Below the pieces are notes generated by a model. It was not told the DNA's origin. It ran no database searches and worked only from the letters and a program-made list of their open reading frames with translations. A DNA stretch of 62,277 nucleotides, from the NCBI GenBank assembly GCA_943359525.1, contig CALRHV010000004.1, positions 1-62,277 of the forward strand, written 5' to 3'. The position numbers and the translations under genes were made by a program. Of this stretch, positions 3,266 through 59,902 are shown piece after piece. The stretch comes from Candidatus Uhrbacteria bacterium (lineage in GTDB: Bacteria > Patescibacteriota > Patescibacteriia > UBA9934). The first letter of the stretch is position 1. The number at the start of each line of letters is the position of its first letter.

Positions 3266-5398
3266 ATGAAGGATTTCTTTCTCTCGGACCAACAGCCTTC
3301 ACCAAGTCTCCACATAGACTATCAGACGGAATTAAACGACGAGCAATATCGGGTGGTTTCTGGTGGTGGCGGGCCAATGTTGGTGCTTGCTGGGGCAGGA
3401 AGTGGCAAAACGAGAACTATTACGTATCGCGTGGCCTGGTTGCTCGAACACGGTACGCCAGTGGAAAACATGTTGTTGCTCACATTTACCAACAAAGCCG
3501 CAAAAGAAATGATGACGCGCGTTGAGGGATTGCTGCGGGCGTATCCAACGGGACTGTGGAGCGGAACCTTTCATTCCATCGCGAACCGCATGTTGCGGAT
3601 GTACGGCGCGTACACTGGATTTGGAAGCGACTTCTCTATTTTGGATGAGGAGGACGCGAATGATTTGATGAAGATGTGTATTAAAGAATTGAAGATCGAT
3701 ACGAAAGGCAGGCGATTTCCGAGCGTTGGCGTGTTGCGAGGTTTGCTTTCGTATTCAAACAACGCGCGACGAACATTGCAATCGGTGCTCAACGATCGTG
3801 CAGAGCATTTTGCAGGAATCATTCACGAGGTGACGGCGGTTGCGGAACGATACGCGTCGGCGAAGCGGACGGCGAAGGCGATGGATTTCGACGATTTGCT
3901 CCTCGAGCTTTTAAAACTTCTTCGCGAAAATGACACTGTTCGCTCACAACTCGCACATCGATTTCAATTCGTACTCGTCGACGAGTTTCAAGATACGAAC
4001 ATCATTCAGTCCGACATCGTTGATCTTCTTTCTTCAGGTCATCGCAATCTCCTTGTGGTTGGTGACGATGCGCAGAGTATTTACTCATTCCGCGCTGCAG
4101 AGATTCGGAATATTCTCGATTTTCAAAAGCGATATCCTGAAGCGCAATCGTATCGATTGGTGATGAACTATCGCTCCACGCCGGAGATTCTTGCCGTTGC
4201 CAACGCGGTGATTTCCAACAACAGCGAACAGTTCGCAAAAGAACTTGTTTCTGCACAAAAGCCTGGTGAAAAGCCGAATATTGTTCCAGCGAACGATGCA
4301 CGAGAAGAAGCACAGTATGTTGTTGAACAGATTTTGAAGTTGATCGACGAAGGCATTAAACTTCAAGGGATTGCGGTATTATTTCGTGCGGCGTATCACT
4401 CGCAAGCTCTCGAATTTGAGCTGATGAAACGAGGAATTGTGTACGAATATCGCGGTGGCATGAAGTTTTTTGAACGTGCGCATATCAAGGACGCCGTCGC
4501 GCATCTTCGACTTCTTCGAAACGGTCACGATCTTGTGGCATGGTCGCGGGCGTTGCAAATTCAACCGGGTCTTGGCATGACAACAAGTCAGAAGATTGCC
4601 GAAACCATGAGTCAGTACGACTCTGCTCGTGATGCGATCGATGCGCCGATGAAGCTGTCTCCTCGCGCGCAGTCGGGCTTTGCGGGAACGCGATCGATTC
4701 TCCGTTTGATGCTTGCGGCACCACTTCCGTCGGAGGCTGTTCGTGCATTCGCAAACCATGAATCGTATCGATTGTATCTCGAGGCCGAATATCCGAATGC
4801 TCGAGAGCGTGTTGAGGATTTGGATCAGCTTGCGGTTTTCGCCGAGCAGTACCGCGATCTCGGCGCGTTCTTGGATGCGATGACGCTTGCTGGGGATTTT
4901 GCGGGGCGGATTGATGACGCTGAATCCGGGCAACGCGAAGAAGGTGATCGGAATACACTTGTGTTGTCCACCATCCATCAAGCGAAAGGATTAGAGTGGG
5001 ACGCGGTGTTCGTGTTGCATTGTGCGCAAGGAATGTTTCCGAGCGACAGAAGCATGGGGCAGTCCCGAGAAATTGAGGAAGAACGTCGATTATTTTACGT
5101 TGCGGCAACGCGAGCACGATCGAGGTTATACTTTACGTACCCAATGACCACCGGATATGAATCGGTCGAGCTCCGTCAGCAGTCCATGTTCCTTGATGAA
5201 ATTCCGTTTGGCATGGCGGAGACGGTACGATTACGTCGTGCGATGCCAGCATGGAGCATGCCGTCGTCGTATTCCACGCCATCCGCGTCTCGTCATCGGG
5301 GACATGATGGCTTCGAAGAGCCCACAATCGTTCTCGACGACATGGGGGAGAAAATGGTAAAAAAGAGTGCACCAGGTTCGTTTCTTGGGGATCACTAA
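3266..5398 (+). CDS. uvrD: ATP-dependent DNA helicase UvrD/PcrA (SF1)
   Basis: LVLAGAGSGKT, LVDEFQDTN, VVGDDAQSIYSFR, NYRST, STIHQAKGLEW, EERRLFYVAATRA. Confidence 0.95.
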   Translation: MKDFFLSDQQPSPSLHIDYQTELNDEQYRVVSGGGGPMLVLAGAGSGKTRTITYRVAWLLEHGTPVENMLLLTFTNKAAKEMMTRVEGLLRAYPTGLWSGTFHSIANRMLRMYGAYTGFGSDFSILDEEDANDLMKMCIKELKIDTKGRRFPSVGVLRGLLSYSNNARRTLQSVLNDRAEHFAGIIHEVTAVAERYASAKRTAKAMDFDDLLLELLKLLRENDTVRSQLAHRFQFVLVDEFQDTNIIQSDIVDLLSSGHRNLLVVGDDAQSIYSFRAAEIRNILDFQKRYPEAQSYRLVMNYRSTPEILAVANAVISNNSEQFAKELVSAQKPGEKPNIVPANDAREEAQYVVEQILKLIDEGIKLQGIAVLFRAAYHSQALEFELMKRGIVYEYRGGMKFFERAHIKDAVAHLRLLRNGHDLVAWSRALQIQPGLGMTTSQKIAETMSQYDSARDAIDAPMKLSPRAQSGFAGTRSILRLMLAAPLPSEAVRAFANHESYRLYLEAEYPNARERVEDLDQLAVFAEQYRDLGAFLDAMTLAGDFAGRIDDAESGQREEGDRNTLVLSTIHQAKGLEWDAVFVLHCAQGMFPSDRSMGQSREIEEERRLFYVAATRARSRLYFTYPMTTGYESVELRQQSMFLDEIPFGMAETVRLRRAMPAWSMPSSYSTPSASRHRGHDGFEEPTIVLDDMGEKMVKKSAPGSFLGDH

Positions 5399-5441
5399 TC
5401 TCTTCGGTCATCCCGTACCTTCAGTCATTCCCTTATTTTTT

Positions 5442-5645
5442 CAGTCATCCCCGCGCAGGCGGGGATCCAGCGACTTCACTTCACTCACTCATCAACGGGT
5501 CCTGTCGCCTCGGACCCCGTTACGGTGCTCATTTCGCACGTGACGTTTGTGGTAATCGTCATTGGTATCTGTGCTCGTTGCGCTCCGTACGGGGACCTCC
5601 CTCGGCGCCACCCGTTGATTCGTTCGCTTCGCTCATCTCCCTCTT
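5442..5645. repeat. Structured intergenic element starting with REP family A (CAGTCATCCCCGCGCAGGCGGGGATCCAG)
   Basis: REP at 5442-5470; internal IR ATCAACGGGT/ACCCGTTGAT; motif GTGCTCGTT at 5571; 3' end CCTCGGCGCCACCCGTTGATTCGTTCG closely matches 12240-12270. Confidence 0.75.
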
Positions 5646-12041: not shown

Positions 12042-12045
12042 TCCT

Positions 12046-12290
12046 CAGTCATCCCCGCGACCTGTCCCCCGGAGGGGGAAGGCGGGGATCCAGTGACTGA
12101 CCGCTCGCTAGTGGCTCGGATACATTCTTCTGCACTCCGCGCGAATCCCCTACGCTGCGACGTCTCACTTCGTTCGACTGCAGCTGAGGGGCGCGTGCTC
12201 GTTGGAAGAATACATCCTCGCCACTCACGCTCGCGATGTCCTCGGTGCCACCCTTGATTCGTTCGTTCGCACAATTCATCTCCCCATTTC
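12046..12290. repeat. Structured intergenic element (REP family A with nested hairpin plus long stem)
   Basis: GTCATCCCCGCG[ACCTGTCCCCCGGAGGGGGAA]GGCGGGGATCCA; homologous to the reverse complement of 17107-17291. Confidence 0.85.
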
Positions 12291-12969: not shown

Positions 12970-14116
12970 CATTATTGCGGAGCACGGTGCTGCGCGACGG
13001 GGAACGTTGCGCACAATGCACGGCGCTGTGGAGACGCCGGTGTTTATGCCAATCGCTACAGCCGGCGCGCTTAAAACGCTGCTGCCGAGCGAGGTAGCGA
13101 ATCTTGGCGCGTCGATTATTTTGGGAAACACGTATCATCTTTTGCTCCGCCCCGGCGAGGAAGAGCTGAAAAAATTTGGAGGCGTTCGTCCGTTTATGCA
13201 TTGGGACGGGCCGTTGCTCACCGACAGTGGGGGGTATCAAGTGTTTAGTTTATCGAAGCTAAACAAGACGGATGACGACGGCGTCACGTTTCAGTCGCAC
13301 ATCGATGGCAGCATGCATCGGCTCACTGCGGAACGATCAATGGAAATTCAAGACGCAATTGGTTCGTCAATCCGCATGCAGTTCGACGACGTCGCCGCAG
13401 GGAACTCGTCTCGCGATCGATACACTGAGGCGATGGAGCGTTCGCTCCGTTGGGCTGTGCGGTCGAAAAAACGATTTGATGAGCTCGTCACTGATCCGAC
13501 CAACCGACCACTCCTTTTCGGCATCGTCCAAGGCGGAACGCATCACGATCTTCGAATGCGATCTCTTCAAGGACTCGTCGATATTGGATTCGATGGTTAC
13601 GCGATCGGCGGACTATCGGTCGGAGAGTCTCGTGAAGATACGTTTCGTATTGTGCGATCGTTAGTAAAGGAGATGCCGGCGAATCGTCCACGATATTTTA
13701 TGGGCGGAGGAATGCCAGAGGAAATTGTGGCGTACGTTTCGTTCGGCGTCGATATGTTTGATTGCGTGTTGCCAACGCGCAATGCTCGACATGGTTCGCT
13801 GTTTGTTTGGAAGGGGGATCCGAAGGAGGCGGTGCGTGAAGCGTTTGCGCGAGCAATGGATGGTGCTGCTGATTTTCGTATCGCAGAAGCACTGTACGAA
13901 AAGATTCAAATTACCAATGAGCGGTTTACTGCAGATGAATCTCCGATCGATTCTTGGAACGATGCTGAAACATCGAAAACGTTTTCTCGGGCGTATCTTC
14001 GCCACCTGTTTAAAACTGGTGAAACGCTCGGACTTCGGTTGGCGACCCTGCAAAACCTGGGTTTTTACTTGAGAATGATGCAGGAATTACGTTTGATCAC
14101 AGCGAATCCCTTGTGA
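12941..14116 (+). CDS. tgt: tRNA-guanine transglycosylase (atypical: Zn ligands absent)
   Basis: ETPVFMP, LGNTYHL, TDSGGYQVFSL, FGIVQGG, GGLSVGE, DMFDCVLPTRNARHG, SRAYLRHL. Confidence 0.93.
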   Translation: MNEVDSSPFSIIAEHGAARRGTLRTMHGAVETPVFMPIATAGALKTLLPSEVANLGASIILGNTYHLLLRPGEEELKKFGGVRPFMHWDGPLLTDSGGYQVFSLSKLNKTDDDGVTFQSHIDGSMHRLTAERSMEIQDAIGSSIRMQFDDVAAGNSSRDRYTEAMERSLRWAVRSKKRFDELVTDPTNRPLLFGIVQGGTHHDLRMRSLQGLVDIGFDGYAIGGLSVGESREDTFRIVRSLVKEMPANRPRYFMGGGMPEEIVAYVSFGVDMFDCVLPTRNARHGSLFVWKGDPKEAVREAFARAMDGAADFRIAEALYEKIQITNERFTADESPIDSWNDAETSKTFSRAYLRHLFKTGETLGLRLATLQNLGFYLRMMQELRLITANPL

Positions 14117-17106: not shown

Positions 17107-17291
17107 AGGAATCGCGAAGCGCCAGTGGCGAGGATGTGTGATTCAAACGAGCACCCCGCCTCTCGCGAGAGGCGGGGTCGCAGCGTAGGGGATTTGCGCG
17201 GAGTGCAGAATTACACATCCGAGCCACTAGCGTAGCGATAGCTGATGGATCCCCGCCTTCCCCATCCGGGGACAGGTCGCGAGGATGACTG
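17107..17291. repeat. Inverted copy of the 12046 structured element
   Basis: Reverse complement aligns over about 185 bp with 12046-12240. Confidence 0.85.
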
Positions 17292-17334
17292 AAGAGATTT
17301 CTGCCGTGCTATAATCAGGAGGACTTTATCGCCT

Positions 17335-18801
17335 ATGATTGGCATCGCAATTCACCTTCCAACCGTTGTCGTGCACTACCTTAAGGTGACGCCTCTTCCG
17401 CTCATGATGACGCAGGCTCTGCTGCTCATTGGTTGGATTCCAATCCTTGGCGTTATTATTTGGGGTTTAACGCACATTTGGCAAGACTATAAACAGGGCT
17501 TGTACGCAAAAACTCTTAAATGGCAGATTCTCTCAGTGAATGTTCCGCAGGACGCGATCAACACGCCAAAGGGCATGGAGAACTTTTTTGTGAATCTTTC
17601 CGGCGTGAAGTCGGGAATTACCTGGAGAGAAAAGTGGCTTGTTGGAAAAGAACAGGCGTCGTTTAGCTTTGAAATCGTGAGCAACGAAGGAAAGATTCAG
17701 TTCATTATTCGTACGATCGACAAATATCGTGATTTGGTTGAGGCGGCGTTGTATGCGCAGTATCCAGAAGCGCAGATTACCGAAATTCAAGATTACGCCA
17801 TGGCTATTCCACGGGAGTATCCCAACAACGAATACGATGTGTTCGGTGGTGAATTAGCGTTGTCGAATAAAGCATTCTTTCCAATTCGAACATTCGAAGA
17901 CTTTGAACATCAGGGCGAGAAAGACTTCCGTTTTAAGGATCCATTGCTGCCAATTATTGAAATGATGGGAAAAATGCGCGAGAAAGAACACTATTGGATT
18001 CAGTTCATTATTCGTCCCCCAGACGATCAGAGCTGGACGAAGGAAGGCATCGCGTATCTTAATAAAATGATGGGCAAGGAAGAGAAGCATGCGCCGGGCT
18101 TTATGGACGCTATTACGGAAAGCGCGCTATGGCTTCCGAAGGGAGTTGCGGCGCAGTTAATAGGATTTGGTGCCCCAGCAGATGGCCACAAGGAGGAAAA
18201 GAAGGACGACTTCCGCATGTTCCGCATGACTCCTCAGGAGAAAGTGATGCTTGATAGTGTTGCGGATAAAATTTCGAAGGTTGGGTGGAAAACGAAGATT
18301 CGGTTCTTGTACGCTGGTCCAAAAACGGACTTCCGCAAGGGATTGATGGCAAGTTCCATGAAAGGCATGTGGGCGGTATTTACGAATCAAAATTTGAACA
18401 GCTTAAGTTTGCATGGTCCGGCAATTCCGAAGGACGACTACTTCTGGCAGAAATGGAAAATGCCGGAGAAGCAACGGAATCTTGTTGAGCGATATCAGGG
18501 TCGTAAGGGTGGGGCTGGTGGAAGCTGGCAAATGTTGAACACCACAGAGCTCGCGACGTTATTTCACTTTCCAGCAGCAGATGCTCGTACCCCTGTTCTT
18601 TCTACAACTGGAGCGCGCCGTGCGGAGGCTCCAAATACTTTGGAGTTTGCAATACATAATGAGCCGCAGCTTCAAAACTGGAAACTGCAAAATGCCGACG
18701 CGAAGGAGGAAGAGCGTGTACAGAGCCTTCCTATTGCACCACTGCGTGTACCAACCCCAATGTCTCCAACAGAAGACGCGCCACCAAACCTTCCGATGTA
18801 A
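17335..18801 (+). CDS. Hypothetical N-anchored protein partnering the downstream TraD/VirD4-like ATPase
   Basis: N-terminal TM, SFEIVS, LYAQYPEAQITE, LNTTELATLFHFP; immediately upstream of the ATPase. Confidence 0.65.
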   Translation: MIGIAIHLPTVVVHYLKVTPLPLMMTQALLLIGWIPILGVIIWGLTHIWQDYKQGLYAKTLKWQILSVNVPQDAINTPKGMENFFVNLSGVKSGITWREKWLVGKEQASFSFEIVSNEGKIQFIIRTIDKYRDLVEAALYAQYPEAQITEIQDYAMAIPREYPNNEYDVFGGELALSNKAFFPIRTFEDFEHQGEKDFRFKDPLLPIIEMMGKMREKEHYWIQFIIRPPDDQSWTKEGIAYLNKMMGKEEKHAPGFMDAITESALWLPKGVAAQLIGFGAPADGHKEEKKDDFRMFRMTPQEKVMLDSVADKISKVGWKTKIRFLYAGPKTDFRKGLMASSMKGMWAVFTNQNLNSLSLHGPAIPKDDYFWQKWKMPEKQRNLVERYQGRKGGAGGSWQMLNTTELATLFHFPAADARTPVLSTTGARRAEAPNTLEFAIHNEPQLQNWKLQNADAKEEERVQSLPIAPLRVPTPMSPTEDAPPNLPM

Positions 18802-18807
18802 TTTGCT

Positions 18808-20712
18808 ATGCGCTACGAACACGACCACGAAAAAGACATTGTCTATTTTGGCCAAACAAATTTCCGCAATCAAATGCGGAGGTTTGGCATTAAAACAGAC
18901 GACCGTCGTCGCCACATGTATATTGTGGGAAAGACGGGTATGGGAAAGACGGTGCTTTTAGAAAACATGATTCTTGCGGATATTTACGCGGGGCATGGTT
19001 GTGCATACATCGATCCGCACGGAGACACCATCACAAAAATTCTTGATTACATTCCTTCGTGGCGTATTAATGACGTAGTGTATTTTAATCCGGCAGATGC
19101 AGATTTTCCTGTTGCGTTTAACATGCTGGAGAAAACGGAAGGCTGGGAAAACGTAAAAGATTACAATGCGAAAGTGATGTATAGTCTTCTTTCGATTTTT
19201 AAGAAAGTGTGGGAGAACGTGTGGAGTGCCCGCATGGAATACATTCTGCAGTACACGATTCTTGCACTCTTGGACACCCCGGGAACAACGCTCCTTGGTA
19301 TTAACCGCATGTTGTCGGACAAGGAGTATCGCACGGAAATCGTGCAGAACGTAAAGGATCCAATGGTTCAGGCATTCTGGCTCAAGGAATTTGCGCAATA
19401 CGACGTAAAATTTGCTGCAGAGGCTTCTGCGCCAATTCAAAATAAAGTTGGACAGTTCTTGGCGTCAACGATGATGCGAAACATCGTTGCGCAATCAAAA
19501 TCGTCCTTTAATTTCCGTGAAGTGATGGACGGTCAGAAGATCCTTCTTATCAACCTTTCGAAGGGTCAAATAGGTGAAGATGCGATGCGTATTCTTGGCG
19601 GAATGTTGATTACGAAAATCTACATGTCGGCCATGGAGCGTGTGAACATTCGCGACGAAAATGAACGACAAGATTTTTATTTGTACGTGGATGAATTTCA
19701 GAACTTTGCGACGGAATCGTTTGCGGATATTTTGTCTGAAGCCCGAAAGTACCGACTGAATCTGATCATCGCACATCAGTACATCGCGCAGCTCGACAGC
19801 ATGACGTCTACCGCGGTTCGCGACGCCGTGTTTGGTAACGTTGGGAGTTTGATTACATTCCGTATTGGAGCGAAAGATGCGGAATTCTTGGAAAGTGAAT
19901 TCATGCCAAGATTTTTGCCGGAAGACTTGATCAACCTCGCAAAATACAACATTTATTTGAAACTCATGATTGATGGCGTGAGCAGCCAGCCATTCTCGGC
20001 AATGACGCTTCCGCCAATTGGTCAGCGCACAGGAAGCGAGGATAAGGTCGTTGAACAGTCGCGTGAGCGATTCGGCGGAAACCGCAAGATGATTGAAGAC
20101 CATGTGATGACGTGGAGTGGGTTTGATCCAAATATTAATGTTGGTGAGGCGTTAGCGAAGGTTGCCGCAGAAAAGAAGGAAGCAAAAAAGGCACGATTCG
20201 CTCATGAGTACACCTGTGCTCGTTGTGAAAAATTATTTACGTTGCCAGTAGAGCTCGATAAGAGCAGACCAATTTATTGCGACGATTGCCATGCGCTCAT
20301 CGTTGAGGAACGGAAGAAGAAGGGGTCATCAAAACCGCCACAGGGAAAACAGTACGCTCCTGAACCGCCAAAGATTTCAACGAGCGAAATGATTGTGAAA
20401 CCAACGCCAGGGGAGGCCTCACTTGAGGAGCTTCAGCCACGTCCAGCGACGCCAGCTCCAGCAGCTCCGATTGTGCCGATTCCTAGGCCTATTCCTCCTG
20501 TGTTGTCGGCTCCGATTGTGCCAACCACAGAAGGCCAGCCGGCAAAGAAAAAGCGTCGTCGGAAGAAGAAACCATCAGGTCTTGGTTCATCGATGACGCC
20601 AATCCCAAACCCAGCGCCTCGACCAGTTAAAGATTCTGTTGCCGCGGCAATGTCTGCCGGCCCTGTTCCAACTCCCGTTGCTCCCGGTGAGCGGATTAGT
20701 TTCGACGCGTAA
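18808..20712 (+). CDS. TraD/TrwB/VirD4-like (DUF87/HerA) ATPase with CxxC-x17-CxxC domain and Pro/Lys-rich tail
   Basis: IVGKTGMGKT (Walker A), IDPHGD, YVDEFQNF (Walker B), EARKYRL..AHQY, CARC...YCDDC. Confidence 0.85.
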   Translation: MRYEHDHEKDIVYFGQTNFRNQMRRFGIKTDDRRRHMYIVGKTGMGKTVLLENMILADIYAGHGCAYIDPHGDTITKILDYIPSWRINDVVYFNPADADFPVAFNMLEKTEGWENVKDYNAKVMYSLLSIFKKVWENVWSARMEYILQYTILALLDTPGTTLLGINRMLSDKEYRTEIVQNVKDPMVQAFWLKEFAQYDVKFAAEASAPIQNKVGQFLASTMMRNIVAQSKSSFNFREVMDGQKILLINLSKGQIGEDAMRILGGMLITKIYMSAMERVNIRDENERQDFYLYVDEFQNFATESFADILSEARKYRLNLIIAHQYIAQLDSMTSTAVRDAVFGNVGSLITFRIGAKDAEFLESEFMPRFLPEDLINLAKYNIYLKLMIDGVSSQPFSAMTLPPIGQRTGSEDKVVEQSRERFGGNRKMIEDHVMTWSGFDPNINVGEALAKVAAEKKEAKKARFAHEYTCARCEKLFTLPVELDKSRPIYCDDCHALIVEERKKKGSSKPPQGKQYAPEPPKISTSEMIVKPTPGEASLEELQPRPATPAPAAPIVPIPRPIPPVLSAPIVPTTEGQPAKKKRRRKKKPSGLGSSMTPIPNPAPRPVKDSVAAAMSAGPVPTPVAPGERISFDA

Positions 20713-30097: not shown

Positions 30098-30175
30098 CAG
30101 TCATCCCCGCGCAGGCGGGGATCCAGACTGTTCGATCCTGTGTGTTATGGATCCCCGCCTGCGCGGGGATGACTG
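30098..30175. repeat. Inverted doublet of REP family A
   Basis: CAGTCATCCCCGCGCAGGCGGGGATCCA ... TGGATCCCCGCCTGCGCGGGGATGACTG. Confidence 0.9.
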
Positions 30176-32673: not shown

Positions 32674-33279
32674 ATGCGCATTACAACGAACCTCGATGCT
32701 GCGATTGCGTGTTTGAAATCTGGTGGCATTGTCGTCTATCCCACAGAAACATCGTATGGAATTGGGTGTGATGCTACGAATGCTGCTGCGGTCGCCAAAG
32801 TATTTTCAATCAAGAATCGCCCTTTGGATAAGGGTGTGACGGTGCTTTTGTCTGCGAATGATCCTTTCGGTGATGTGCATGTGCTTTGGCGATCGGAGCT
32901 TCACGATCTTGCAGCTAAACATTGGCCGGGTCCGTTGAATATTGTCTGTTCGATTACGGCAACCTCATCGATTGCGCCACAGTGTCTCACTAATGGAACG
33001 ATCGCCACACGCCGATCAAGCCATCTCATCGCAAACGCTCTCGTCGACGCGCTTGGCGTTCCCCTTGTTTCTACGAGTGCGAATATTTCTGGAGAATCCG
33101 AACTTTACAGCGCCCAAGGAATCTACGATCGATTGAGTAGTGAGTCGATTCAGCCAGATGTGATTTTCGATGTAGGTGAATTACCAAAACGCGCACCGTC
33201 CACACTCGTTACGTGGGACGATGCGCGGGGTGAGGTAAAGGTGTTGTGGCAAGGGGAGATTGTTCTTGCGAATTGTTAG
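32674..33279 (+). CDS. tsaC: L-threonylcarbamoyladenylate synthase (Sua5/YrdC/TsaC)
   Basis: YPTETSYGIG, IKNRP, HWPGPL, LVSTSANISG, PST. Confidence 0.9.
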   Translation: MRITTNLDAAIACLKSGGIVVYPTETSYGIGCDATNAAAVAKVFSIKNRPLDKGVTVLLSANDPFGDVHVLWRSELHDLAAKHWPGPLNIVCSITATSSIAPQCLTNGTIATRRSSHLIANALVDALGVPLVSTSANISGESELYSAQGIYDRLSSESIQPDVIFDVGELPKRAPSTLVTWDDARGEVKVLWQGEIVLANC

Positions 33280-33680
33280 GAGTTCCCGACGTTGCCCCTC
33301 GTTTCAACCAGGTCTCCGAACTGGTTTAACGTTGATATCCTGGAAAGTATTTCTTGAATTTTCTCGCCGTAAGGTTCGGTTGATTGATAAACGCTGCGGA
33401 TTTTTTCGGACAATGCGTCCCACTGCTCAGCGAGTTTCTTTTTAGATTCTGAATCCACGTCAGTATTTTGGAGTGCGACGGTTACAGCATTCTGAGCGGC
33501 GGATAGCTCATTCAAATTCAGATGTAGTTCGAGTGCATCCCTTTCATTTCGTATCGTGTCAATCAATGTAAAGAGTCGTTCTACCTCCTTTGTTGTTTTT
33601 TTAAGGTGCGTTGTCGCATTATTTATCCGTTCGGTTGTCGCTTGAACCATTGCGAGCTTTTCTTGATCGATCGGCTTCAT
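33276..33680 (-). CDS. Coiled-coil hypothetical protein
   Basis: MKPIDQEK...; heptad-like, AT-rich; ORF-track upstream extension lies in the glmS duplicate. Confidence 0.55.
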   Translation of the reverse strand: MKPIDQEKLAMVQATTERINNATTHLKKTTKEVERLFTLIDTIRNERDALELHLNLNELSAAQNAVTVALQNTDVDSESKKKLAEQWDALSEKIRSVYQSTEPYGEKIQEILSRISTLNQFGDLVETRGNVGNS

Positions 33681-33691
33681 ATAAAAATAGT

Positions 33692-33790
33692 TTAGTCCAC
33701 TGTCACAGCCTTCGCAAGATTGCGGGGACGGTCGGGGTTGATATCTTTGAGCACGGCAAGTTCGTAAGCAAGGATTTGAAGGGGGATGTT
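33692..33790 (-). pseudogene. Duplicated 3' end of glmS (99 bp), att-like direct repeat
   Basis: Encodes [32 protein letters not shown]; 91/99 nt identical to 34510-34608. Confidence 0.9.
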
Positions 33791-33886
33791 GGTACAACAG
33801 AAGAGGCATTGATTAGCCCGATAAAAACATCATCGGCGCCCCCCGCGTTATGCGAAGGGCGCCGTTGTCGTACGTGACGGGCGGTT

Positions 33887-34509: not shown

Positions 34510-36333
34510 TTAATCCACGGTTACAGCCTTCGCAAGATTGCGGGGACGGTCTGGGTTGATATCTTTGAGCACGGCAAGTTCGTAGGCGAGGAGTTGGAGG
34601 GGGATGTTCGCCACAAGGCCGGTGAGGACACCGTTTTTTGGAACGATGATGGTTTCTGAGGCAACGCGTTCTGCGAGCTTTGGATTGTCGGTGATAATGA
34701 TGGTTCGTGCGCCACGAGCTCGTACTTCTTCGGCGGCGGTTCGCATGAGCTGACCATGTTGATCATCGAAGATACAGAGAATCACCGGCGTGTTTTCCAC
34801 GATGAGTGCGAATGGCCCGTGCTTCAGCGCGCCGCCAGCATACCCTTCGGCATGGAGATAGGTAATCTCTTTAATCTTTAGCGCACCTTCTCGAGCAATT
34901 GATTCGCATGGCCCTTTTCCGAGCACGAAGCAATGCTCGGCATCCACGAGGGTTTTTGCGATCTCCTTACACGTTTCGCGAGTGTTGAGCGCGATTTTCA
35001 CGAGCGTTGGCAAGCGACGAAGTTCGTCGATGAGATGACGGCGACGCTCAGCTTCGGTACCGCGATGCATGCTGAACCACGCGGCAATCATTTCGAGTGC
35101 GACGACTTGCGTGCTAAATGCTTTCGTCGATGCTACTGCATGTTCGCGACCAGCGTTGAGGTACACGCCACATTTTGTGCTTCGCGCAATGAGCGATCCA
35201 ACCGCGTTTATCACCGAGAATGTTGGCACACCGCGATCTTGGGCAATGACGAGCGCGCGATGGGTGTCCTTTGTTTCGCCGGATTGTGAAATCACGAGTA
35301 GGCCGGCGCCGTGTGGAGCGAAGTGATGTTCGGTGATTTCGGATGCGTCGACTACTTGCACGGTGTCGAAGGCCTTCAACGCTCGCATACCAAGTGCACC
35401 GTACATGCCGGCGTGAAGCGATGTTCCGCACGCGGCGATGACCAGGTGTTTTATGCCGAGGAGTGTTTCTTTGTTGCGTTCCAGTCCGCCGAGCTTCATC
35501 TCGAGATCCGTTGGAATACGTGCGCCGTGGTTGAGTGTTCGTGCAAGCGCGTCGGGTTGCTCCATGATTTCCTTGATGGTCCAGTGTGGAAAAGGAGCGG
35601 GGGAGAGCTCGATGACTTCTTCTGGCGCAAGCTCGACTCGTGAAGTATCGAGTGTGGTGCCTTCCGGAGTGATCAGCGCGAACTCGCCGTTTTGTAATGC
35701 GATGAACTCGCGGGTGTGATTGTTGAATGCCGACGGTTCGCTCGCAACGTACATGGTTCCTTTTCCAACGCCAACCACCAGAGGACTGCCGTTTCGAGCT
35801 GCCAGAATCGTATTTGGCATCAGCGGAGAGACGACTGCGACGCCCCACGTGCCTTCAAGTTTCGCAAGGGCGTGCTTCGTCGCCACGTCCAATCCCTCGC
35901 CGTCGTCGAGGTATTTTCCGATGAGTTGGGCGATGATTTCTGTATCAGTTTGAGATTTGAAAACAATTCCCAAGGCTTCGAGATCGGCCTTGAGCATGTG
36001 CGCGTTCTCGATAATGCCGTTGTGGACGAGGGCAAGACGATTCTTCATGTCCGAGTGGGGATGGGCGTTGGCATCCGTTTTTCCACCATGTGTTGCCCAA
36101 CGGGTATGGCCAATGCCAGATCGATTCCCGACGTGGTCGGCGATATGTTCTCGAAGTTTCACGATGGCATCGGGAGCAACGCCGCTCGCGAACTTTGTCG
36201 TGACAATCGTTCCAGCGTCCGAAACCGTCGCCACGCCAGCAGAATCGTATCCACGGCTTTCCAAAATCGAAAGCCCGTCAATAATTATGCTGACACTATT
36301 TGTATCCCCAACAACCCCGATGATTCCACACAT
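34510..36333 (-). CDS. glmS: Glutamine--fructose-6-phosphate aminotransferase
   Basis: [57 protein letters not shown]. Confidence 0.97.
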   Translation of the reverse strand: MCGIIGVVGDTNSVSIIIDGLSILESRGYDSAGVATVSDAGTIVTTKFASGVAPDAIVKLREHIADHVGNRSGIGHTRWATHGGKTDANAHPHSDMKNRLALVHNGIIENAHMLKADLEALGIVFKSQTDTEIIAQLIGKYLDDGEGLDVATKHALAKLEGTWGVAVVSPLMPNTILAARNGSPLVVGVGKGTMYVASEPSAFNNHTREFIALQNGEFALITPEGTTLDTSRVELAPEEVIELSPAPFPHWTIKEIMEQPDALARTLNHGARIPTDLEMKLGGLERNKETLLGIKHLVIAACGTSLHAGMYGALGMRALKAFDTVQVVDASEITEHHFAPHGAGLLVISQSGETKDTHRALVIAQDRGVPTFSVINAVGSLIARSTKCGVYLNAGREHAVASTKAFSTQVVALEMIAAWFSMHRGTEAERRRHLIDELRRLPTLVKIALNTRETCKEIAKTLVDAEHCFVLGKGPCESIAREGALKIKEITYLHAEGYAGGALKHGPFALIVENTPVILCIFDDQHGQLMRTAAEEVRARGARTIIITDNPKLAERVASETIIVPKNGVLTGLVANIPLQLLAYELAVLKDINPDRPRNLAKAVTVD

Positions 36334-41474: not shown

Positions 41475-41712
41475 AAAGAAACTGACCTTGGAATGGGTTG
41501 TGACGGAACGGCTGGGATTTGCATCTTCGGCGACTTGGCATGTTCGATTTTGAATATTGCGAGTGTAAAGACCTCTTTACACTTTTCTGATGGAAAACCT
41601 CAATAAAAGTGTAGATTGATATGTAAAGAGGTCTTTACACTCACGGATTGGGAAATCGAGTACCCCAAGCTCACAAGTCCCTTCTTTTTTCAAAGAATCA
41701 GTTTCAGATCCA
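41475..41712. repeat. Structured intergenic element with GTGTAAAGAGGTCTTTACAC palindrome doublet
   Basis: 82-bp core 41561-41642 matches the reverse complement of 58217-58298; flanks also homologous. Confidence 0.85.
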
Positions 41713-41734: not shown

Positions 41735-41775
41735 TTGACATCACCGAGTTAGCACTCTATACTTGAGACTGCTAA
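41735..41775 (+). promoter_or_regulatory. Sigma-70 promoter with overlapping CIRCE operator
   Basis: TTGACA(41735)-N17-TATACT(41758); TTAGCACTC-N9-GACTGCTAA at 41749-41775 (1 mismatch to CIRCE). Confidence 0.93.
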
Positions 41776-41777
41776 TT

Positions 41778-42473
41778 ATGAATGTCCGCCAAAGTCACAT
41801 TCTCCAGCTTGTGGTGGACGAATACGTCCGTACGGCTGAGCCAGTCAGTTCCCAGGCCTTGTGTGCTGGGTTCGACTTGGATTGTTCCCCGGCCACGGTT
41901 CGAAACGACATGGTTTCGTTGGAAGAGGAGGGATTCCTCCATCAGCCGCACACCTCGGCTGGTCGAGTTCCTACAGAAGAAGGTTATCGGTACTACCTCG
42001 CAAACGTTGTACAGGCCAAGCAGCCGAAAGTCGCAACCGAACTCCGAAGCGCCATGGAAGAGATTCGATCGCTCGAATCCAAAATCCAGTTCCTTGGTCG
42101 CCGACTCGCCGATCTTTCTGGCGACGCCGTTATCGTCACCAACGAACACCAAACCTCGGCGCTGGGCGTGGCGAACCTTCTGAGAAAGCCAGACTTTCAA
42201 GAAGAGAACATGCTCCTTGCGCTTGCCGAAGACATCGAACGCCTTGAGCGTGATGCCACAAGTGTGATGAGCGTTGCGCCAAGCGAAGTACGAATCTTGC
42301 TTGGCGAAGAAAGCCCTATGGGCAAACGCCTCGCCACCGTCATCGTTCGCCACCAACTTCCCAACGGCGAAATTGGCGTTCTCTCCATCGTCGGCCCACT
42401 CCGCATGAACTACGCCCGAAACGTTGCATTACTTTCTGAAGCGAAGAGAATTTTAGAAGAAAACGATTTGTAA
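41778..42473 (+). CDS. hrcA: Heat-inducible transcription repressor HrcA (shortened)
   Basis: EYVRTAEPVSS, SPATVRNDM, QPHTSAGRVPT..GYRYY, IVGPLRMNY. Confidence 0.92.
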   Translation: MNVRQSHILQLVVDEYVRTAEPVSSQALCAGFDLDCSPATVRNDMVSLEEEGFLHQPHTSAGRVPTEEGYRYYLANVVQAKQPKVATELRSAMEEIRSLESKIQFLGRRLADLSGDAVIVTNEHQTSALGVANLLRKPDFQEENMLLALAEDIERLERDATSVMSVAPSEVRILLGEESPMGKRLATVIVRHQLPNGEIGVLSIVGPLRMNYARNVALLSEAKRILEENDL

Positions 42474-42476
42474 ATT

Positions 42477-43079
42477 ATGACGCAAGACGAATCACAGAAT
42501 CCAGGATCGAATTTGGTCGGGGACAAGGAAGCGAATGTCAGTCATCCTGAGCATAGCGAAGGATCTCCCGCAGATTCCGGTCATCCCCGCGCAGGCGGGG
42601 ATCCATCATCAGATCTCGAAGCCCTTCAAACCAAATGCGCCGAATACCTCTCCGGCTGGAAGCGTGCTCTCGCAGACTACGAAAACCTTCAAAAGCAAAA
42701 CTCCAGCGCCCGCGATGATGATCGCCGACGCGTTCGATCGAATCTCGCAGAAGACTTGCTCCCCGTCGTCGACAACTTCGGCTACGTCACGAAGCACGTT
42801 CCCGACATCAGCGAGTGTCCTGAAGAGTTCAAGAAAAAGTTCGACACCTGGTTCCAAGGCATCGGCCATATTGAACGCCAATTCGCGGAAGCGATGAAAG
42901 GACTCGGCGTTGAGCCGATTGAAAGCATCGGCACGATCTTCGACCCGAACCTTCACGAAAGCGGCGGCTCGCGATCGGAACCTGGAAAGAAAGAACACGA
43001 GATCGTGGAAGAACTCATCAAGGGCTGGAAGATCGGTGACGTTGTTCTGCGACCTGCAAAAGTAATCGTTAATGAATAA
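42477..43079 (+). CDS. grpE: Nucleotide exchange factor GrpE with REP-derived N-terminal insert
   Basis: [41 protein letters not shown]. Confidence 0.93.
42541..42605 (+). repeat. Two REP units (family B and family A) in-frame in grpE
   Basis: GTCATCCTGAGCATAGCGAAGGATCTC (42541-42567) and GTCATCCCCGCGCAGGCGGGGATCCA (42580-42605). Confidence 0.9.
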
Positions 43080-43083
43080 TTCT

Positions 43084-45003
43084 ATGTCAAAGATCCTCGG
43101 TATCGATTTAGGGACAACAAACTCATGTGTAGCAATCATGGAAGGCGGACAGCCGAAGGTGTTGGAGAATAAGGAGGGAATGCGAACCACGCCATCCATC
43201 ATCGCGGTTGCGAAGAATGGTGAGCGACTTGTGGGGCAACCTGCAAAGCGACAGGCGGTGACGAATCCAAAAAACACTCTTTATTCGATTAAGCGATTGA
43301 TCGGACGACGGTTTAAGGATGAGGAAGTACAGCGCGATATCAAACTGATGCCGTTTGCGATTGTGGCGCGGGGTGAGGGAATTGCGATCAAGATGGGAGA
43401 GAAGGATTTTTCTCCGCAGGAAATCGCGGCAATGGTGCTTGGAAAGATTAAGGCGGATGCGGAGGAGAAGACGGGGGAGAAGATTACTGAAGCCGTCATC
43501 ACCGTTCCTGCATATTTCGATGATGCGCAGCGTCAGGCAACGAAAGATGCTGGTGAGATCGCAGGTTTGAAAGTCTTGCGTATTATCAACGAACCAACCG
43601 CTGCTGCATTGGCGTATGGTTTTGATAAGAAGGTTGGTCAAAAAATCGTTGTGTACGATCTTGGTGGAGGAACGTTCGATGTGTCGGTGCTCGATGTTTC
43701 CGAGGGAACTGTCGAAGTTCTCGCAACAAACGGTGACACGCATCTTGGTGGCGACGACTTCGATCTGACCATCATGAAGTGGATTCTTGATGAGTTTAAG
43801 AAGCTTGAAGGAATCGACCTTTCTGGTGATGCATTGGCGATGCAGCGTATTAAGGACGCGGCAGAACGTGCGAAGATTGAATTATCTACCGCGCAAACAA
43901 CGGAAATCAACCAACCATTCATCACGTCCGGAGCTGAAGGGCCAAAGCATTTGGTGATGTCGCTTTCACGATCGAAACTCGAGGAACTTGTTGGCGGACT
44001 CGTCGATAAAACGATGGAGCCAGTGAAGAAAGCGCTTGCGGATGCGAAGATGGATGCGAAGGCAATCGGCGAGATCGTGATGGTGGGAGGTATGACCCGT
44101 ATGCCACTCGTGCTTTCGAAAGTTGAAGCGTTCTTTGGAAAGAAACCAAACGTGACGGTGAACCCAGATGAGGTCGTCGCTGTTGGCGCTGCGGTGCAGG
44201 CTGGTGTGATGCAGGGCGATGTGAAGGATGTGCTGTTGCTCGATGTTGCCCCACTGAGCCTTGGAATCGAAACCATGGGAAGCGTGTTCACAAAGTTGAT
44301 CGATCGCAACACCACGATTCCAACCAGCAAGTCGCAGGTGTTCTCGACTGCTTCCGACAACCAGCCAGCCGTAACGATTCGCGTCGGCCAGGGCGAGCGC
44401 CCAATGTTTAATGACAACAAAATTCTTGGTCAGTTCGATCTCTCTGGAATCCCGCCAGCACCTCGCGGTGTTCCGCAGATTGAGGTGAAGTTCGATATCG
44501 ATGCGAACGGAATCTTGCACGTATCAGCAACAGACAAGGCGACGAATAAAGCACAGACGATTACGATCACGTCATCGTCAGGCTTGAGCAAGGAAGAAAT
44601 TGAGAAGATGAAGGCCGATGCAGAATCGCACGCCACCGAAGACAAGGCAAAGCAAGAACTCATCGAAGCGCGCAATATTGCGGATACCATGATGTACACC
44701 GTGGAGAAAATGCTTGTCGATAATAAGGACAAGGTTTCTGAAGAGGACAAAAAGATTCTCGAGGAGAAGATGGAGGCAGTAAAGAAAGTGAAGGATACTG
44801 ATGATCTGGAAGCAATCAAAGCTGCTGGCGATGATCTTTCAAAAGAGGCTCAGCGTGTTGGTGGCGCGATGTATTCCAAGGACGACGCTGCAAAGAATGC
44901 TGACGCGAGTCATCCTGAGGGCACCGAAGGATCTCCGTTGGAATCAGAGGCGAAAGATGCAGAGTTCACGGAGAAGAAGGACGATGGTGCTTCGCAGAGT
45001 TAA
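43084..45003 (+). CDS. dnaK: Chaperone DnaK (Hsp70)
   Basis: [56 protein letters not shown]. Confidence 0.98.
44909..44935 (+). repeat. REP family B unit in-frame in the dnaK C-terminal tail
   Basis: GTCATCCTGAGGGCACCGAAGGATCTC encodes SHPEGTEGS. Confidence 0.85.
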
Positions 45004-45011
45004 TTTTTAAA

Positions 45012-45040
45012 TATAGGCGGGGCCACCGTGCCCCGCTTAT
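45012..45040. repeat. Palindromic hairpin after dnaK, related to 26946-26976
   Basis: TATAGGCGGGGC-CACCGT-GCCCCGCTTAT. Confidence 0.55.
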
Positions 45041-45613: not shown

Positions 45614-45781
45614 ATGGGAGGACAATTACGAAAACTTCTATCGGGAACATTGAAGACGATACTCGCAGGTTTTTTGTACGTTCTCGCTCTTCCTGCGGTA
45701 CGGAACTGGTTGATGAATTTGCTTCTTGGTAAGCGCAAGGTGAATCAGAAAGTGGTTGATGTTGAGGCCAAGAAAGAATAA
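45614..45781 (+). CDS. 55-aa single-TM microprotein
   Basis: MGGQLRKLLSGTLKTILAGFLYVLALPAVRNWL...VVDVEAKKE; fills the gap before dnaJ. Confidence 0.6.
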   Translation: MGGQLRKLLSGTLKTILAGFLYVLALPAVRNWLMNLLLGKRKVNQKVVDVEAKKE

Positions 45782-45788
45782 GTCGATT

Positions 45789-46865
45789 ATGGCCGGTAAA
45801 GATTTCTACAAAATTCTCGGAGTCCCCAAGTCTGCATCGCAGGACGATGTTAAGCGTGCGTTCAGAAAGCTGGCGCACGAGCACCATCCGGATAAGGGTG
45901 GAAAGGAAGAGAAGTTTAAAGAGATTAATGAGGCGTACCAGGCACTTGGCGACGAGCAGAAGCGCGCGCAGTACGACCAGTTTGGTTCTGCGGCGTTTGA
46001 TGGAAGCGGCGGAGGAAATCCGTTCGCTGGTGGGAATCCATTCGGCGGTGGAGGTGGATTCGATTTTAGTGGCGCGGGGTTTGAAGATCTTGGCGACATT
46101 CTCGGCGGAATGTTCGGCGGAGGCGCTCGTCAGCAACGCGAGCCAAAGGGTGAAGACCTTGAGGTTGGTATTCGCTTGAAGTTCTCGGAAGCAGTGTTTG
46201 GTGTTGAAAAAGAAATTCCACTGACGAAGCATTCAAAATGTGCGCGATGCGCAGGAACAGCGGCAGACCCTGGAACAAAAATGAAAACGTGTACTATGTG
46301 CGATGGAAAGGGATTCCGTGTGGTGATGCAGCGCACGATGCTTGGCGCGATGCAGATGAAGACGGCGTGTACGGAATGTCATGGACGCGGTGAGAAGCCA
46401 GAGAAGGATTGCACGGAGTGTCATGGTAAAGGCGCGGTGCACGGCCGAACCACGGTTCGCGTTGATATTCCAGCAGGAGTTGATGACGGTATGAGCGTTC
46501 GCGTTCGCGGAGAAGGCGAAAGCATTGGCGCACAAGGCGAGCCGGGGGATTTGTATCTTCGATTGCGCGTTGAGCCAGACCCACGATTCAAGCGCGATGG
46601 ATTTACGATTTACGTCACAAAGAATATCGGTTTCACTCAAGCTGCACTCGGCGATACCGTCGATGTCGATACGGTTGATGGGAAAGTCGAACTCAAGATT
46701 CCGCAAGGCACACAAAGTGGCGATGAGCTGAGGCTCCGAGGAAAAGGTGTACCGTCGAACCGTGGTCGTGGGGATCAGATTGTGATTGTGAAAGTGATTA
46801 CACCGACGAAGATGGATAAGAAAACGCAGGAGTTGTTGAAAGAGATGAATTTGCGGGAGAAGTAG
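45789..46865 (+). CDS. dnaJ: Chaperone DnaJ
   Basis: J-domain HPD, G/F region, four CxxCxG repeats, GDLY, LRLRGKG. Confidence 0.97.
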   Translation: MAGKDFYKILGVPKSASQDDVKRAFRKLAHEHHPDKGGKEEKFKEINEAYQALGDEQKRAQYDQFGSAAFDGSGGGNPFAGGNPFGGGGGFDFSGAGFEDLGDILGGMFGGGARQQREPKGEDLEVGIRLKFSEAVFGVEKEIPLTKHSKCARCAGTAADPGTKMKTCTMCDGKGFRVVMQRTMLGAMQMKTACTECHGRGEKPEKDCTECHGKGAVHGRTTVRVDIPAGVDDGMSVRVRGEGESIGAQGEPGDLYLRLRVEPDPRFKRDGFTIYVTKNIGFTQAALGDTVDVDTVDGKVELKIPQGTQSGDELRLRGKGVPSNRGRGDQIVIVKVITPTKMDKKTQELLKEMNLREK

Positions 46866-49088: not shown

Positions 49089-49156
49089 CGTCATCCCCGC
49101 GTAGGCGGGGATCCATCACTCCGAACAATCTGGATCCCCGCCTACGCGGGGATGAC
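49089..49156. repeat. Inverted doublet of REP family A between convergent genes
   Basis: CGTCATCCCCGCGTAGGCGGGGATCCA ... TGGATCCCCGCCTACGCGGGGATGAC. Confidence 0.9.
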
Positions 49157-58139: not shown

Positions 58140-58370
58140 GGAATCTTGGATGGGGTTGGGAGGGGCGCTGAAGGAAGATTATCGGCGAGGGTGGGGTGCT
58201 CGTTTGCCCAATCTCCGAGTGTAAAGAGGACTTTACATATCAACGTGCGCTTTTACTGGGGTTTTCGATCAGAAAAGTGTAAAGAGGTCTTTACACTCTC
58301 AAAACGTAAAAACACACGCGGTGCCGAAGCATTCTCTCCGTCCCAACCCATTCAAAGGATCAGTTTCAGT
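58140..58370. repeat. Inverted copy of the 41475 structured element
   Basis: Core 58217-58298; outer IR TTGGATGGGGTTGGGA / TCCCAACCCATTCAA; GGGGTGCTCGTTT at 58193. Confidence 0.85.
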
Positions 58371-58393: not shown

Positions 58394-58681
58394 ATGTCCC
58401 TTCTCGAATTCTACGGTGACACGTGCCCACATTGCGTTGAAATGAAGCCGATGGTTGAGAAAGTTGAAAAGGATCTTGGAATTTCGATTGAGAAGCTTGA
58501 GGTGTGGAACAACGAGGCAAATGCGAAGCGCATGGAAGAGATCGACAAAGGCTTGTGTGGCGGCGTGCCATTTTTCTATAACACGGAAACAAAAGGATTC
58601 ATTTGTGGTTCCAGCGACGAAGCAGCGGTGACTGCGTGGGCAAAAGGTAAAAAGGCAAACGGAATTGGTGAGGGAAAATAA
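58394..58681 (+). CDS. Thioredoxin/glutaredoxin-like protein
   Basis: EFYGDTCPHC (CxxC), GVPFF. Confidence 0.85.
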   Translation: MSLLEFYGDTCPHCVEMKPMVEKVEKDLGISIEKLEVWNNEANAKRMEEIDKGLCGGVPFFYNTETKGFICGSSDEAAVTAWAKGKKANGIGEGK

Positions 58682-58685
58682 ACTT

Positions 58686-58767
58686 CAGTCATTGCGAGGA
58701 GGGTAATCCCGACGCGGCAATCTTGGTGAACCTAGATTGCTTCGGCCGATTACAGCCTCGCAAAGAC
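58686..58767. repeat. Inverted doublet of REP family C
   Basis: GTCATTGCGAGGAGGGTAATCCCGACGCGGCAATCT ... AGATTGCTTCGGCCGATTACAGCCTCGCAAAGAC. Confidence 0.85.
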
Positions 58768-59825: not shown

Positions 59826-59902
59826 CGTCATTGCGAGGCTGTAATCGGCCGCGCAATCTAGGCCTAGATTGCCGCGTTGGGATTACCCTCCTCGCAATGA
59901 CG
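59826..59902. repeat. Inverted doublet of REP family C, reverse complement of 58686-58767
   Basis: CGTCATTGCGAGGCTGTAATCGGCCGCGCAATCT ... AGATTGCCGCGTTGGGATTACCCTCCTCGCAATGACG. Confidence 0.88.

Follow-up and report, generated by a model that had tools for sequence, protein, structure and literature searches.

This study concerns the hrcA-grpE-dnaK operon of a Patescibacteria (Candidate Phyla Radiation, CPR) bacterium and three short hairpin repeats that lie in frame inside its grpE and dnaK genes. The window, that is, the whole stretch of DNA analysed, comprises 62,277 nt of contig CALRHV010000004.1 from a Candidatus Uhrbacteria assembly (GCA_943359525.1) and has a G+C content of about 51%. 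The homologues of its GrpE and DnaK whose source is named come from 'Patescibacteria group bacterium' genomes and one Candidatus Uhrbacteria, and the window's own DnaK appears in the database as P0121 (639 aa). In this lineage the spacers of the operon are almost nil. The genes and repeats at the locus are as follows.

hrcA: 41763-42473, + strand, first gene of the hrcA-grpE-dnaK operon, from the open reading frame (ORF) list
grpE: 42477-43079, + strand, with PF01025 homologues in Pfam; 42 N-terminal residues, predicted to be unstructured, precede the conserved GrpE fold
Family B repeat in grpE: 42541-42567, + strand, exact match to the pattern, GrpE codons 22-31
Family A repeat in grpE: 42580-42604, + strand, GrpE codons 35-43, peptide GHPRAGGDP, 8-bp stem
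dnaK: 43072-45003, + strand, a 643-codon ORF with a likely start at ATG 43084 and a variable linker before the conserved end
Family B repeat in the dnaK 3' tail: 44909-44935, + strand, exact match to the pattern, codons 613-622 of the ORF
dnaJ: 45756-46865, after a gap 3' of dnaK

Family B is a 27-nt element, GTCATCCTGAG-N5-CGAAGGATCTC, which occurs in the window only at these two positions. Both copies are exact, allowing up to three mismatches adds no further match, and the element is never found in 100 shuffles. An earlier note on this DNA had described a palindrome with a 4-nt spacer, lying in one frame at the N-terminus of GrpE and in the C-terminal tail of DnaK. The shared frame is correct, as the two exact copies have the same codon phase, and the spacer is 5 nt long. 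The palindrome is better described as an imperfect hairpin: a 5-bp outer stem (ATCCT/AGGAT) is present, but it is followed by a tandem GA/GA mismatch, an inner stem of 2 bp and a 3-nt loop, and the whole sits between a non-palindromic GTC head and CTC tail. The predicted folding energies of the two copies are -8.8 and -11.7 kcal/mol as RNA and about -2.8 kcal/mol as DNA. The copies differ by a compensatory flip in the inner stem (GAGC-ATA-GCGA versus GAGG-GCA-CCGA), in which one pair is variable; among 21 distinct variants this pair is CG in 12, UG in three, UA in two, GC in one and unpaired in three, a modest covariation whose score is reached by 4 of 500 shuffles.

Family A (GTCATCCCCGCGCAGGCGGGGATCC) has six copies in the window (5444+, 30100+, 30173-, 42580+, 49090+ and 49156-) and none in shuffles. 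One copy lies in grpE and five are intergenic, four of these five in two head-out doublets. The family forms a strong 8-bp hairpin, with z of about -4 as RNA (about -4.2 for the grpE copy) and about -3.5 as DNA. The earlier note had placed family A at 42580 in GrpE and otherwise between genes at 5442, 30098 and 49089; the intergenic sites are real, but the coordinates are 1-2 nt off, and the inverted partners, which bring four copies to six, had been missed. By a wider scan, families A and B join a family A variant and a family C in a superfamily with a GTCAT head and an ATC tail. The window holds about 15 GTCAT-head elements, of which only three are in genes, all of them in grpE-dnaK. The intergenic copies, and counts far above those in shuffles, demonstrate that grpE and dnaK carry, in frame, copies of genuine interspersed hairpin repeat families, as had been claimed. 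Further members of the superfamily in the window are these.

5444-5468, + strand: intergenic single copy of family A, with two head-only sequences, GTCAT(C/T)CC, before it (5407 and 5424)
12048-12092, + strand: family A variant with an extra internal hairpin, with an inverted partner at 17245-17289 (- strand)
30100-30173: family A head-out inverted doublet, intergenic, after a PBP gene and before a Mur ligase gene
49090-49156: family A head-out inverted doublet with loop GTAG, between convergent dnaX-like and riboflavin kinase genes
58688-58724, + strand: family C, single copy
59827-59901: family C (GTCATTGCGAGG...GCAATC) head-out doublet, with the GTCAT head of A and B and a different hairpin

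At 5407-5468 three GTCAT(C/T)CC heads thus stand in tandem, and a full family A hairpin follows the last one only. The family A variants form the outer ends of imperfect inverted repeats of about 190 nt (12042-12231 and 17118-17295, 80-89% complementary), which enclose a 4.9-kb block with genes for a SpoU methylase, TGT, a SecD-PPIase fusion and SecF.

The three copies inside genes are all read from the sense strand and agree in codon phase, the G of GTCAT being the second base of its codon. This shared frame is weak evidence, since four of the six frames of family B are open and the one used is hydrophilic, being rich in Gly, Ser and Pro; the other open frame on the same strand reads VILS.AKDL. 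Upstream of the conserved GrpE domain the reading frame has just two start codons, ATG 42477 and TTG 42513, and both are 5' of the inserts. With no start codon in frame from the inserts to the conserved domain, the GrpE inserts must be translated, which upholds the earlier claim that peptide segments are added to GrpE and removes the possibility that the true grpE start lies downstream of them. The start itself, MT(Q)DESQNPGS, is conserved in the closest GrpE orthologues (P0001-P0005 and P0008).

The N-terminus of GrpE and the C-terminal linker of DnaK before its conserved terminal motif are disordered in E. coli. The AlphaFold model of the GrpE studied here has no secondary structure in residues 1-42 (confidence score, pLDDT, 44-50) and a long helix from residue 43. 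In the DnaK model, which is poor overall, the tail after the helix at 579-611 (residues 612-643) is coil with a pLDDT of about 30, and the family B copy falls in the variable linker preceding the conserved C-terminal end. Both insert sites are therefore predicted to be unstructured, as had been proposed, firmly for GrpE and tentatively for DnaK.

Inserts among orthologous loci

The window was compared with nine orthologous loci, L001-L009, whose GrpE cores are 84-98% identical. The N-terminal region of GrpE contains the following repeats.

Window and L003: family B and family A
L008: family B only, with loop CAAAG
L002 and L009: family A only, with a head-only G(T/C)CATCCC before it
L005: family A (loop GAAG) and a different hairpin (IGGAPTPRSD)
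L004: family A with a decayed head (GCCAC)
L001 and L006: a CCCTCTCC...GGAGAGGG hairpin (SPSPY..EGRGEV)
L007: yet another sequence

Family B in grpE is present in L003 and L008 and absent from L001, L002, L006, L007 and L009, while family A is common to L002, L003, L004, L005 and L009 and absent from L001, L006, L007 and L008. Orthologues whose core proteins are 93-98% identical lack one or both inserts. The dnaK copy of family B is also absent from the nearest relatives of the window, whose DnaK cores are 98.3% (L008), 97.1% (L009) and 96.5% (L001 and L002) identical, and present in L007 (92.7%), where 32 nt, CGAGTCATCCTGAGGGCACCGAAGGATCTCCG, are identical and the flanks different. Consistent with this, the insert peptide in DnaK (SHPExxEGSP type) is found among the 120 closest homologues only in P0121 and in P0135, the DnaK of L007. 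The comparison of GrpE and DnaK orthologues demonstrates that the inserts are polymorphic for presence and absence among close relatives, in line with the earlier interpretation. The dnaK copy common to the window and L007 would be either an independent gain or a short-patch transfer.

The GrpE N-terminus holds many other repeats. Repeat-type peptides occur there in 28 of 120 homologue clusters and fall into eight classes. At least six of the recurring types belong to other Patescibacteria and are further to those described here; two of them, classes D and E, are confirmed as DNA hairpins, and the rest are putative classes recognised by their recurrent peptides. In relatives with a spacer between grpE and dnaK, it is the spacer that carries repeats: L007 has a family B doublet there, and L001 has family C. 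A hairpin of a separate repeat family, ATAGGCGGGGC-N6-GCCCCGC, lies just 3' of dnaK in the window (45017-45036); it is also 3' of dnaK in L007 (11943-11962) and, as a variant with a shorter loop, in L009 (11931-11948), and in L005 (853-872) it is the in-frame hairpin of the GrpE N-terminus that reads IGGAPTPRSD.

Conservation of the inserts clearly differs from that of their host genes. Between the window and L003, 31% of the codons for the same residue differ in the grpE core, whereas a run of 79 identical nucleotides (42532-42610) spans both repeats and the next longest run is 33 nt; at the core rate, 25 consecutive identical codons have a probability of about 1e-4. Between the window and L007, 48% of the same-residue codons of dnaK differ, and a 32-nt identical run covers family B in an otherwise unalignable tail. 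The stem codons of family A are unchanged in L004 and L005, where 55-56% of same-residue codons differ; changes are confined to head or loop, and the element stands out as the single conserved stretch in a GrpE N-terminus that does not otherwise align. In the distant orthologues that also carry family A its palindrome is intact, so that no distant orthologue was found to keep the peptide and break the palindrome. Since the synonymous sites of the repeats are identical while the host genes diverge by 31-55%, it is the DNA element, and not the peptide, that is kept. These codon comparisons thus demonstrate conservation at the nucleotide rather than the peptide level, and this identity fits equally with recent spread or recombination, with gene conversion from other copies and with selection on the hairpin.

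Relation to known repeat classes and GIY-YIG nucleases

It has been reported that the dRS3 repeat of Neisseria is part of a longer oriented element, NTS (CGTCATTCCCGCGMAVGCGGGAATCYRG), and that NTS-like 'Ssn-related motifs' (SRM) flank small single-domain GIY-YIG nucleases (Ssn) specific for single-stranded DNA (ssDNA) across phyla (Chenal et al., Nat Commun 2025, PMC11893778). Bound to the hairpin, Ssn cleaves ssDNA of one strand upstream of the hairpin, and the arrangement NTS-gene-NTS lowers transformation in Neisseria; Patescibacteria are not mentioned in that paper (PMC11893778). NTS and SRM elements have a conserved oriented CGTCAT head, a hairpin of 20-30 nt and a GGAATCC-type tail, and families A and B share a GTCAT head, a hairpin and a GGATC(C/T) tail. 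Essentially the sole difference between NTS and family A is that ATTCCC/GGGAAT in the former is ATCCCC/GGGGAT in the latter. The published degenerate SRM pattern, HGTCWYN(0-2)YYVSBRHN(0-5)WNVSBRGN(0-2)RNCYNB, is matched by four of the six family A copies, with 0.22 expected in shuffles, and the other two, the grpE copy and 49156(-), miss it solely because their first base is G and not H. Families A, B and C all show the oriented SRM architecture of GTCAT head, hairpin and ATC tail, and the repeats also resemble the class in their multiplicity, with six family A copies in 62 kb, two family B copies in the window and 11 in the 22-kb L007 locus (GCA_040960375.1). In the latter, family B forms three head-out doublets (53-109, 18605-18669 and 19118-19173), and an intergenic singleton at 13172 is the same 27-mer as the grpE copy of the window.

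A very wide phylogenetic spread is another feature shared with NTS and SRM. The exact family B pattern occurs in at least 120 species-representative genomes, and the matches listed include Acidobacteriota, Chloroflexota, Bacteroidota, Planctomycetota, Verrucomicrobiota, Proteobacteria, Cyanobacteria, Omnitrophota and Saccharibacteria. In these genomes, which are mostly GC-rich, stop-to-stop ORFs are open in several frames and mostly touch the repeat at their ends, a pattern in which coding and intergenic copies are not separable. Family B is also present in 41 viral contigs, none of which has a gene of GIY-YIG type adjoining it. Its commonest loops are CGCAG and CGAAG, and GGCAC is a rare loop, seen in 2 of the 148 copies of the sequence set examined. 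That the GGCAC loop is specific to dnaK was considered and rejected: its only two metagenome matches are both intergenic and in unrelated organisms, one of them just 5' of a GIY-YIG gene.

Family B flanks GIY-YIG genes in four genomes, L046, L060 (Pedobacter), L118 and L130, all from other phyla or samples. For example, in L046 (Chloroflexota, 3313-3710) it stands on both sides of a small GIY-YIG gene with heads outward, the arrangement known from NTS and SRM, and in L130 (79-285) two copies lie upstream of such a gene. The head-out doublets of our window look like gene-less miniatures of this repeat-flanked unit. One single-domain GIY-YIG nuclease gene does occur in the window:

2320-2568, + strand: 82 aa, PF01541 with E=4.9e-15, UPF0213 type

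The best solved relatives of its product are the UPF0213 proteins 1zg2 and 1ywl. It is 29% identical to the family B-flanked protein of L046, has no flanking repeats, and is a possible partner of the repeats. Among 45 of the larger ORFs in the window, none has a Pfam match to Y1_Tnp or another transposase (13 of the 45 have no Pfam match at all), and a search for a partner enzyme in NCBIfam gave nothing useful. Two features set the repeats apart from the published class: the tandem G.A mismatches of family B, which the pattern misses, and the lack of a recognised Ssn-type gene in this window. On balance, we regard the repeats in grpE and dnaK as probable members of the NTS/dRS3/SRM class.

Other known systems are less similar. 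REP, BIME and REPIN sequences likewise have a conserved head and a short hairpin and lie outside genes, singly or as inverted doublets, and the doublets of families A, B and C are REPIN-like in arrangement. Such sequences are thought to be spread by a hairpin-recognising ssDNA enzyme (IS200/IS605-like Y1, RAYT). However, the REP head is GT(A/G)G instead of GTCAT, no Y1 transposase was found in the window, and the gene associated with the repeats elsewhere encodes a GIY-YIG nuclease and not RAYT. It has also been recognized that palindromic repeats can lie in frame in unrelated, often essential genes and add peptides at tolerant sites, as do Rickettsia palindromic elements (RPE) and intragenic MITEs such as ERIC (PMC10969869). 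The inserts described here share this in-frame addition of peptide segments. The earlier note had cited RPE as the known precedent, but RPE are about 100-150 bp long, carry a conserved ORF of their own, add 30-50 residues and belong to another sequence family and another phylum, whereas the present inserts have 25-27 nt and add 9-10 residues, so that the 25-30-nt NTS/dRS3/SRM elements are nearer (PMC11893778). Unlike RPE and MITEs, moreover, several unrelated repeat families occupy the same GrpE site in different lineages. Two further candidates were rejected. The copies are dispersed without an array, and CRISPR-DR28 scores 17.6 bits at family A against a threshold of 35, which excludes a CRISPR repeat; no GC-rich hairpin with a T-run is present at 42541, 42580 or 44909, which excludes an intrinsic terminator or attenuator.

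In-frame palindromic insertions and the NTS/SRM class are thus known already. New are the occurrence in this phylum, the presence of very short inserts, single hairpins, in two essential chaperones, a family B variant that escapes the published pattern, and the recurrent use of the GrpE N-terminus as landing site by many repeat families. NTS/SRM repeats have been reported almost always between genes; our findings suggest that they can be translated inside essential genes when spacer DNA is scarce, and that such DNA has been taken up more than once, and independently, by the disordered termini of GrpE and DnaK. Family B would extend the SRM class to elements outside the published pattern that nevertheless flank GIY-YIG genes. 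For annotation, such repeats may explain odd lineage-specific peptides (e.g. IGGxPxPR..) in Patescibacteria proteins and many spurious ORFs, and they offer natural test cases in which conservation at synonymous sites separates DNA-level from protein-level constraint.

Competing explanations for the in-gene copies

We consider the in-gene copies probably to be selfish or host-tolerated hairpin repeats of the NTS/SRM class that grpE and dnaK carry along as translated passenger peptides. Elsewhere such repeats flank small GIY-YIG ssDNA nucleases with heads outward, or stand as gene-less head-out doublets and singletons. In the nearly spacer-free hrcA-grpE-dnaK operon, copies would have landed in, or been copied into, the genes themselves and would have survived only where extra residues are tolerated, that is, at the N-terminus of GrpE, which is unstructured, and in the variable C-terminal linker of DnaK, and only in an open, hydrophilic frame. 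The in-gene copies are thus translated, probably as passenger peptides of 9-10 residues. Dependence on an Ssn-type nuclease and neutrality of the peptides may be supposed from this scheme. Several observations weigh against it. The published SRM pattern matches neither family B copy, and the fold energy of family B is no better than that of shuffles, as RNA or as DNA. No Ssn-type (cd10448-like) gene or transposase was recognised in the 62-kb window. An old insert that was purely neutral would not be expected to keep its synonymous sites perfectly. Compared with empty orthologues, the insertion is not a clean 27 nt: the dnaK copy replaces about 30 nt, and the empty grpE sites differ by indels. 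Orthologues that lack family B have a head-like G(T/C)CATCCC at the corresponding grpE site, which could be a target or a footprint, and the same could hold for the other head-only sequences (at 5407 and 5424, and in grpE of L002 and L009). Clean boundaries and target-site duplications were not recoverable at the inserts, the flanks differing by indels. The unclean boundaries, the head-like GTCATCC at empty grpE sites and a GGCACCAGAAG in the ancestral dnaK linker that resembles the family B core make it possible that copying was guided by microhomology; the mode of insertion may thus have been transposition-like or recombinational copying from another copy.

The same conservation could mean that the hairpins are kept for a role of the DNA or RNA in the operon and that the coding sequence serves two uses, a reading we hold to be rather unlikely. 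Candidate roles are those of strand-specific Ssn-type ssDNA nuclease targets that bracket grpE-dnaK as in NTS-gene-NTS and limit recombination of incoming DNA, as the lowered transformation in Neisseria would suggest, or of mRNA structures that tune stability or relative expression. The frozen synonymous sites, the isolated survival of family A against L004 and L005, the compensatory inner-stem change between the two family B copies and the direct orientation of the copies near the grpE 5' end and the dnaK 3' end all speak for such a role. Because the in-gene elements are all in grpE-dnaK, and the grpE-dnaK spacer of relatives, where there is one, holds repeats instead, a locus-specific nucleic-acid function stays alive as a minority reading. 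However, the inserts are not required, as close orthologues do without one or both; the in-gene copies show nothing like a terminator, family B folds weakly and the window has no visible Ssn-type gene, and the frozen sequence is equally explained by recent spread, lineage recombination or gene conversion. We speculate, as an improbable extension, that SRM-type elements bracket grpE-dnaK under selection on DNA inside coding sequence, either as targets of a GIY-YIG ssDNA nuclease confined to one strand or as structures of the operon mRNA; the disordered termini would serve as landing pads for lack of intergenic space, and at least eight unrelated repeat families across the phylum would have landed repeatedly in the GrpE N-terminus. 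The earlier note, in contrast, had regarded the repeats as domesticated, which would make SHPExxEGSP and GHPRAGGDP selected motifs in GrpE-DnaK function or interaction. It is true that the same peptide stands in two partner proteins of one genome, that all copies use the same hydrophilic frame and that the DnaK peptide recurs in P0135, but the distribution among close orthologues is patchy, conservation extends to synonymous sites, the same DNA is non-coding in many phyla, and among homologues the sites vary greatly in length as well as in sequence. Domestication is therefore very unlikely; patchiness and synonymous-site conservation point to a DNA element with a passenger peptide, and the physical interaction of GrpE and DnaK finds no support as a relevant factor. 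Least credible is that there was no insertion at all, the repeats having arisen locally by slippage or convergence from a low-complexity GAAGG-rich linker, or through an assembly artefact at repeats. Ancestral dnaK tails with GGCACCAGAAG and a GAGTCA...CCAGAAGGATC in L004 do resemble parts of family B, and neither insert has clean boundaries. Against this stand exact identities of 27-32 nt to elements in unrelated genomes and contexts, the absence of matches in shuffles, the intact reading frames, and the same arrangement in other public assemblies whose sequence departs from that of the window at many positions (L003 from ENA, L008 from Logan and L007 from NCBI). The account of selfish or tolerated passenger repeats remains the one we favour.

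Other features of the window

At gathering thresholds, a scan of the window with Rfam found two tRNAs and no other match, and a permissive scan of 42480-42660 gave sub-threshold noise alone, including CRISPR-DR28 at family A. No known RNA family fits the repeats. Upstream of hrcA (41735-41775) lies a sigma-70-like promoter, TTGACA-17-TATACT, rated strong, and 3' of it a CIRCE-like TTAGCACTC-N9-GACTGCTAA overlaps the TTG at which hrcA is listed to begin; ATG 41778 is more likely to be the true start. A stretch of 125 nt 5' of hrcA (41548-41672) recurs inverted at 58187-58311 with 82% identity, upstream of a small thioredoxin/glutaredoxin-like ORF on the + strand (about 58397-58670). Each copy contains two palindromes, (A/T)GTAAAGA-NN-TCTTTACA(C)T, about 60 nt apart, and the first palindrome on the hrcA side is perfect (AGTGTAAAGA-CC-TCTTTACACT). 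This region could be a common operator of hrcA and the thioredoxin/glutaredoxin-like ORF. The last 99 nt of glmS (34510-36333, - strand) are duplicated about 0.8 kb away with 92% identity (34510-34608 and 33692-33790), the duplicate falling within a Pfam-negative ORF at 33276-33809 (- strand). Finally, 18808-20712 (+ strand) encodes a homologue of the TrwB/TraG-like type IV coupling proteins with a treble-clef zinc finger.

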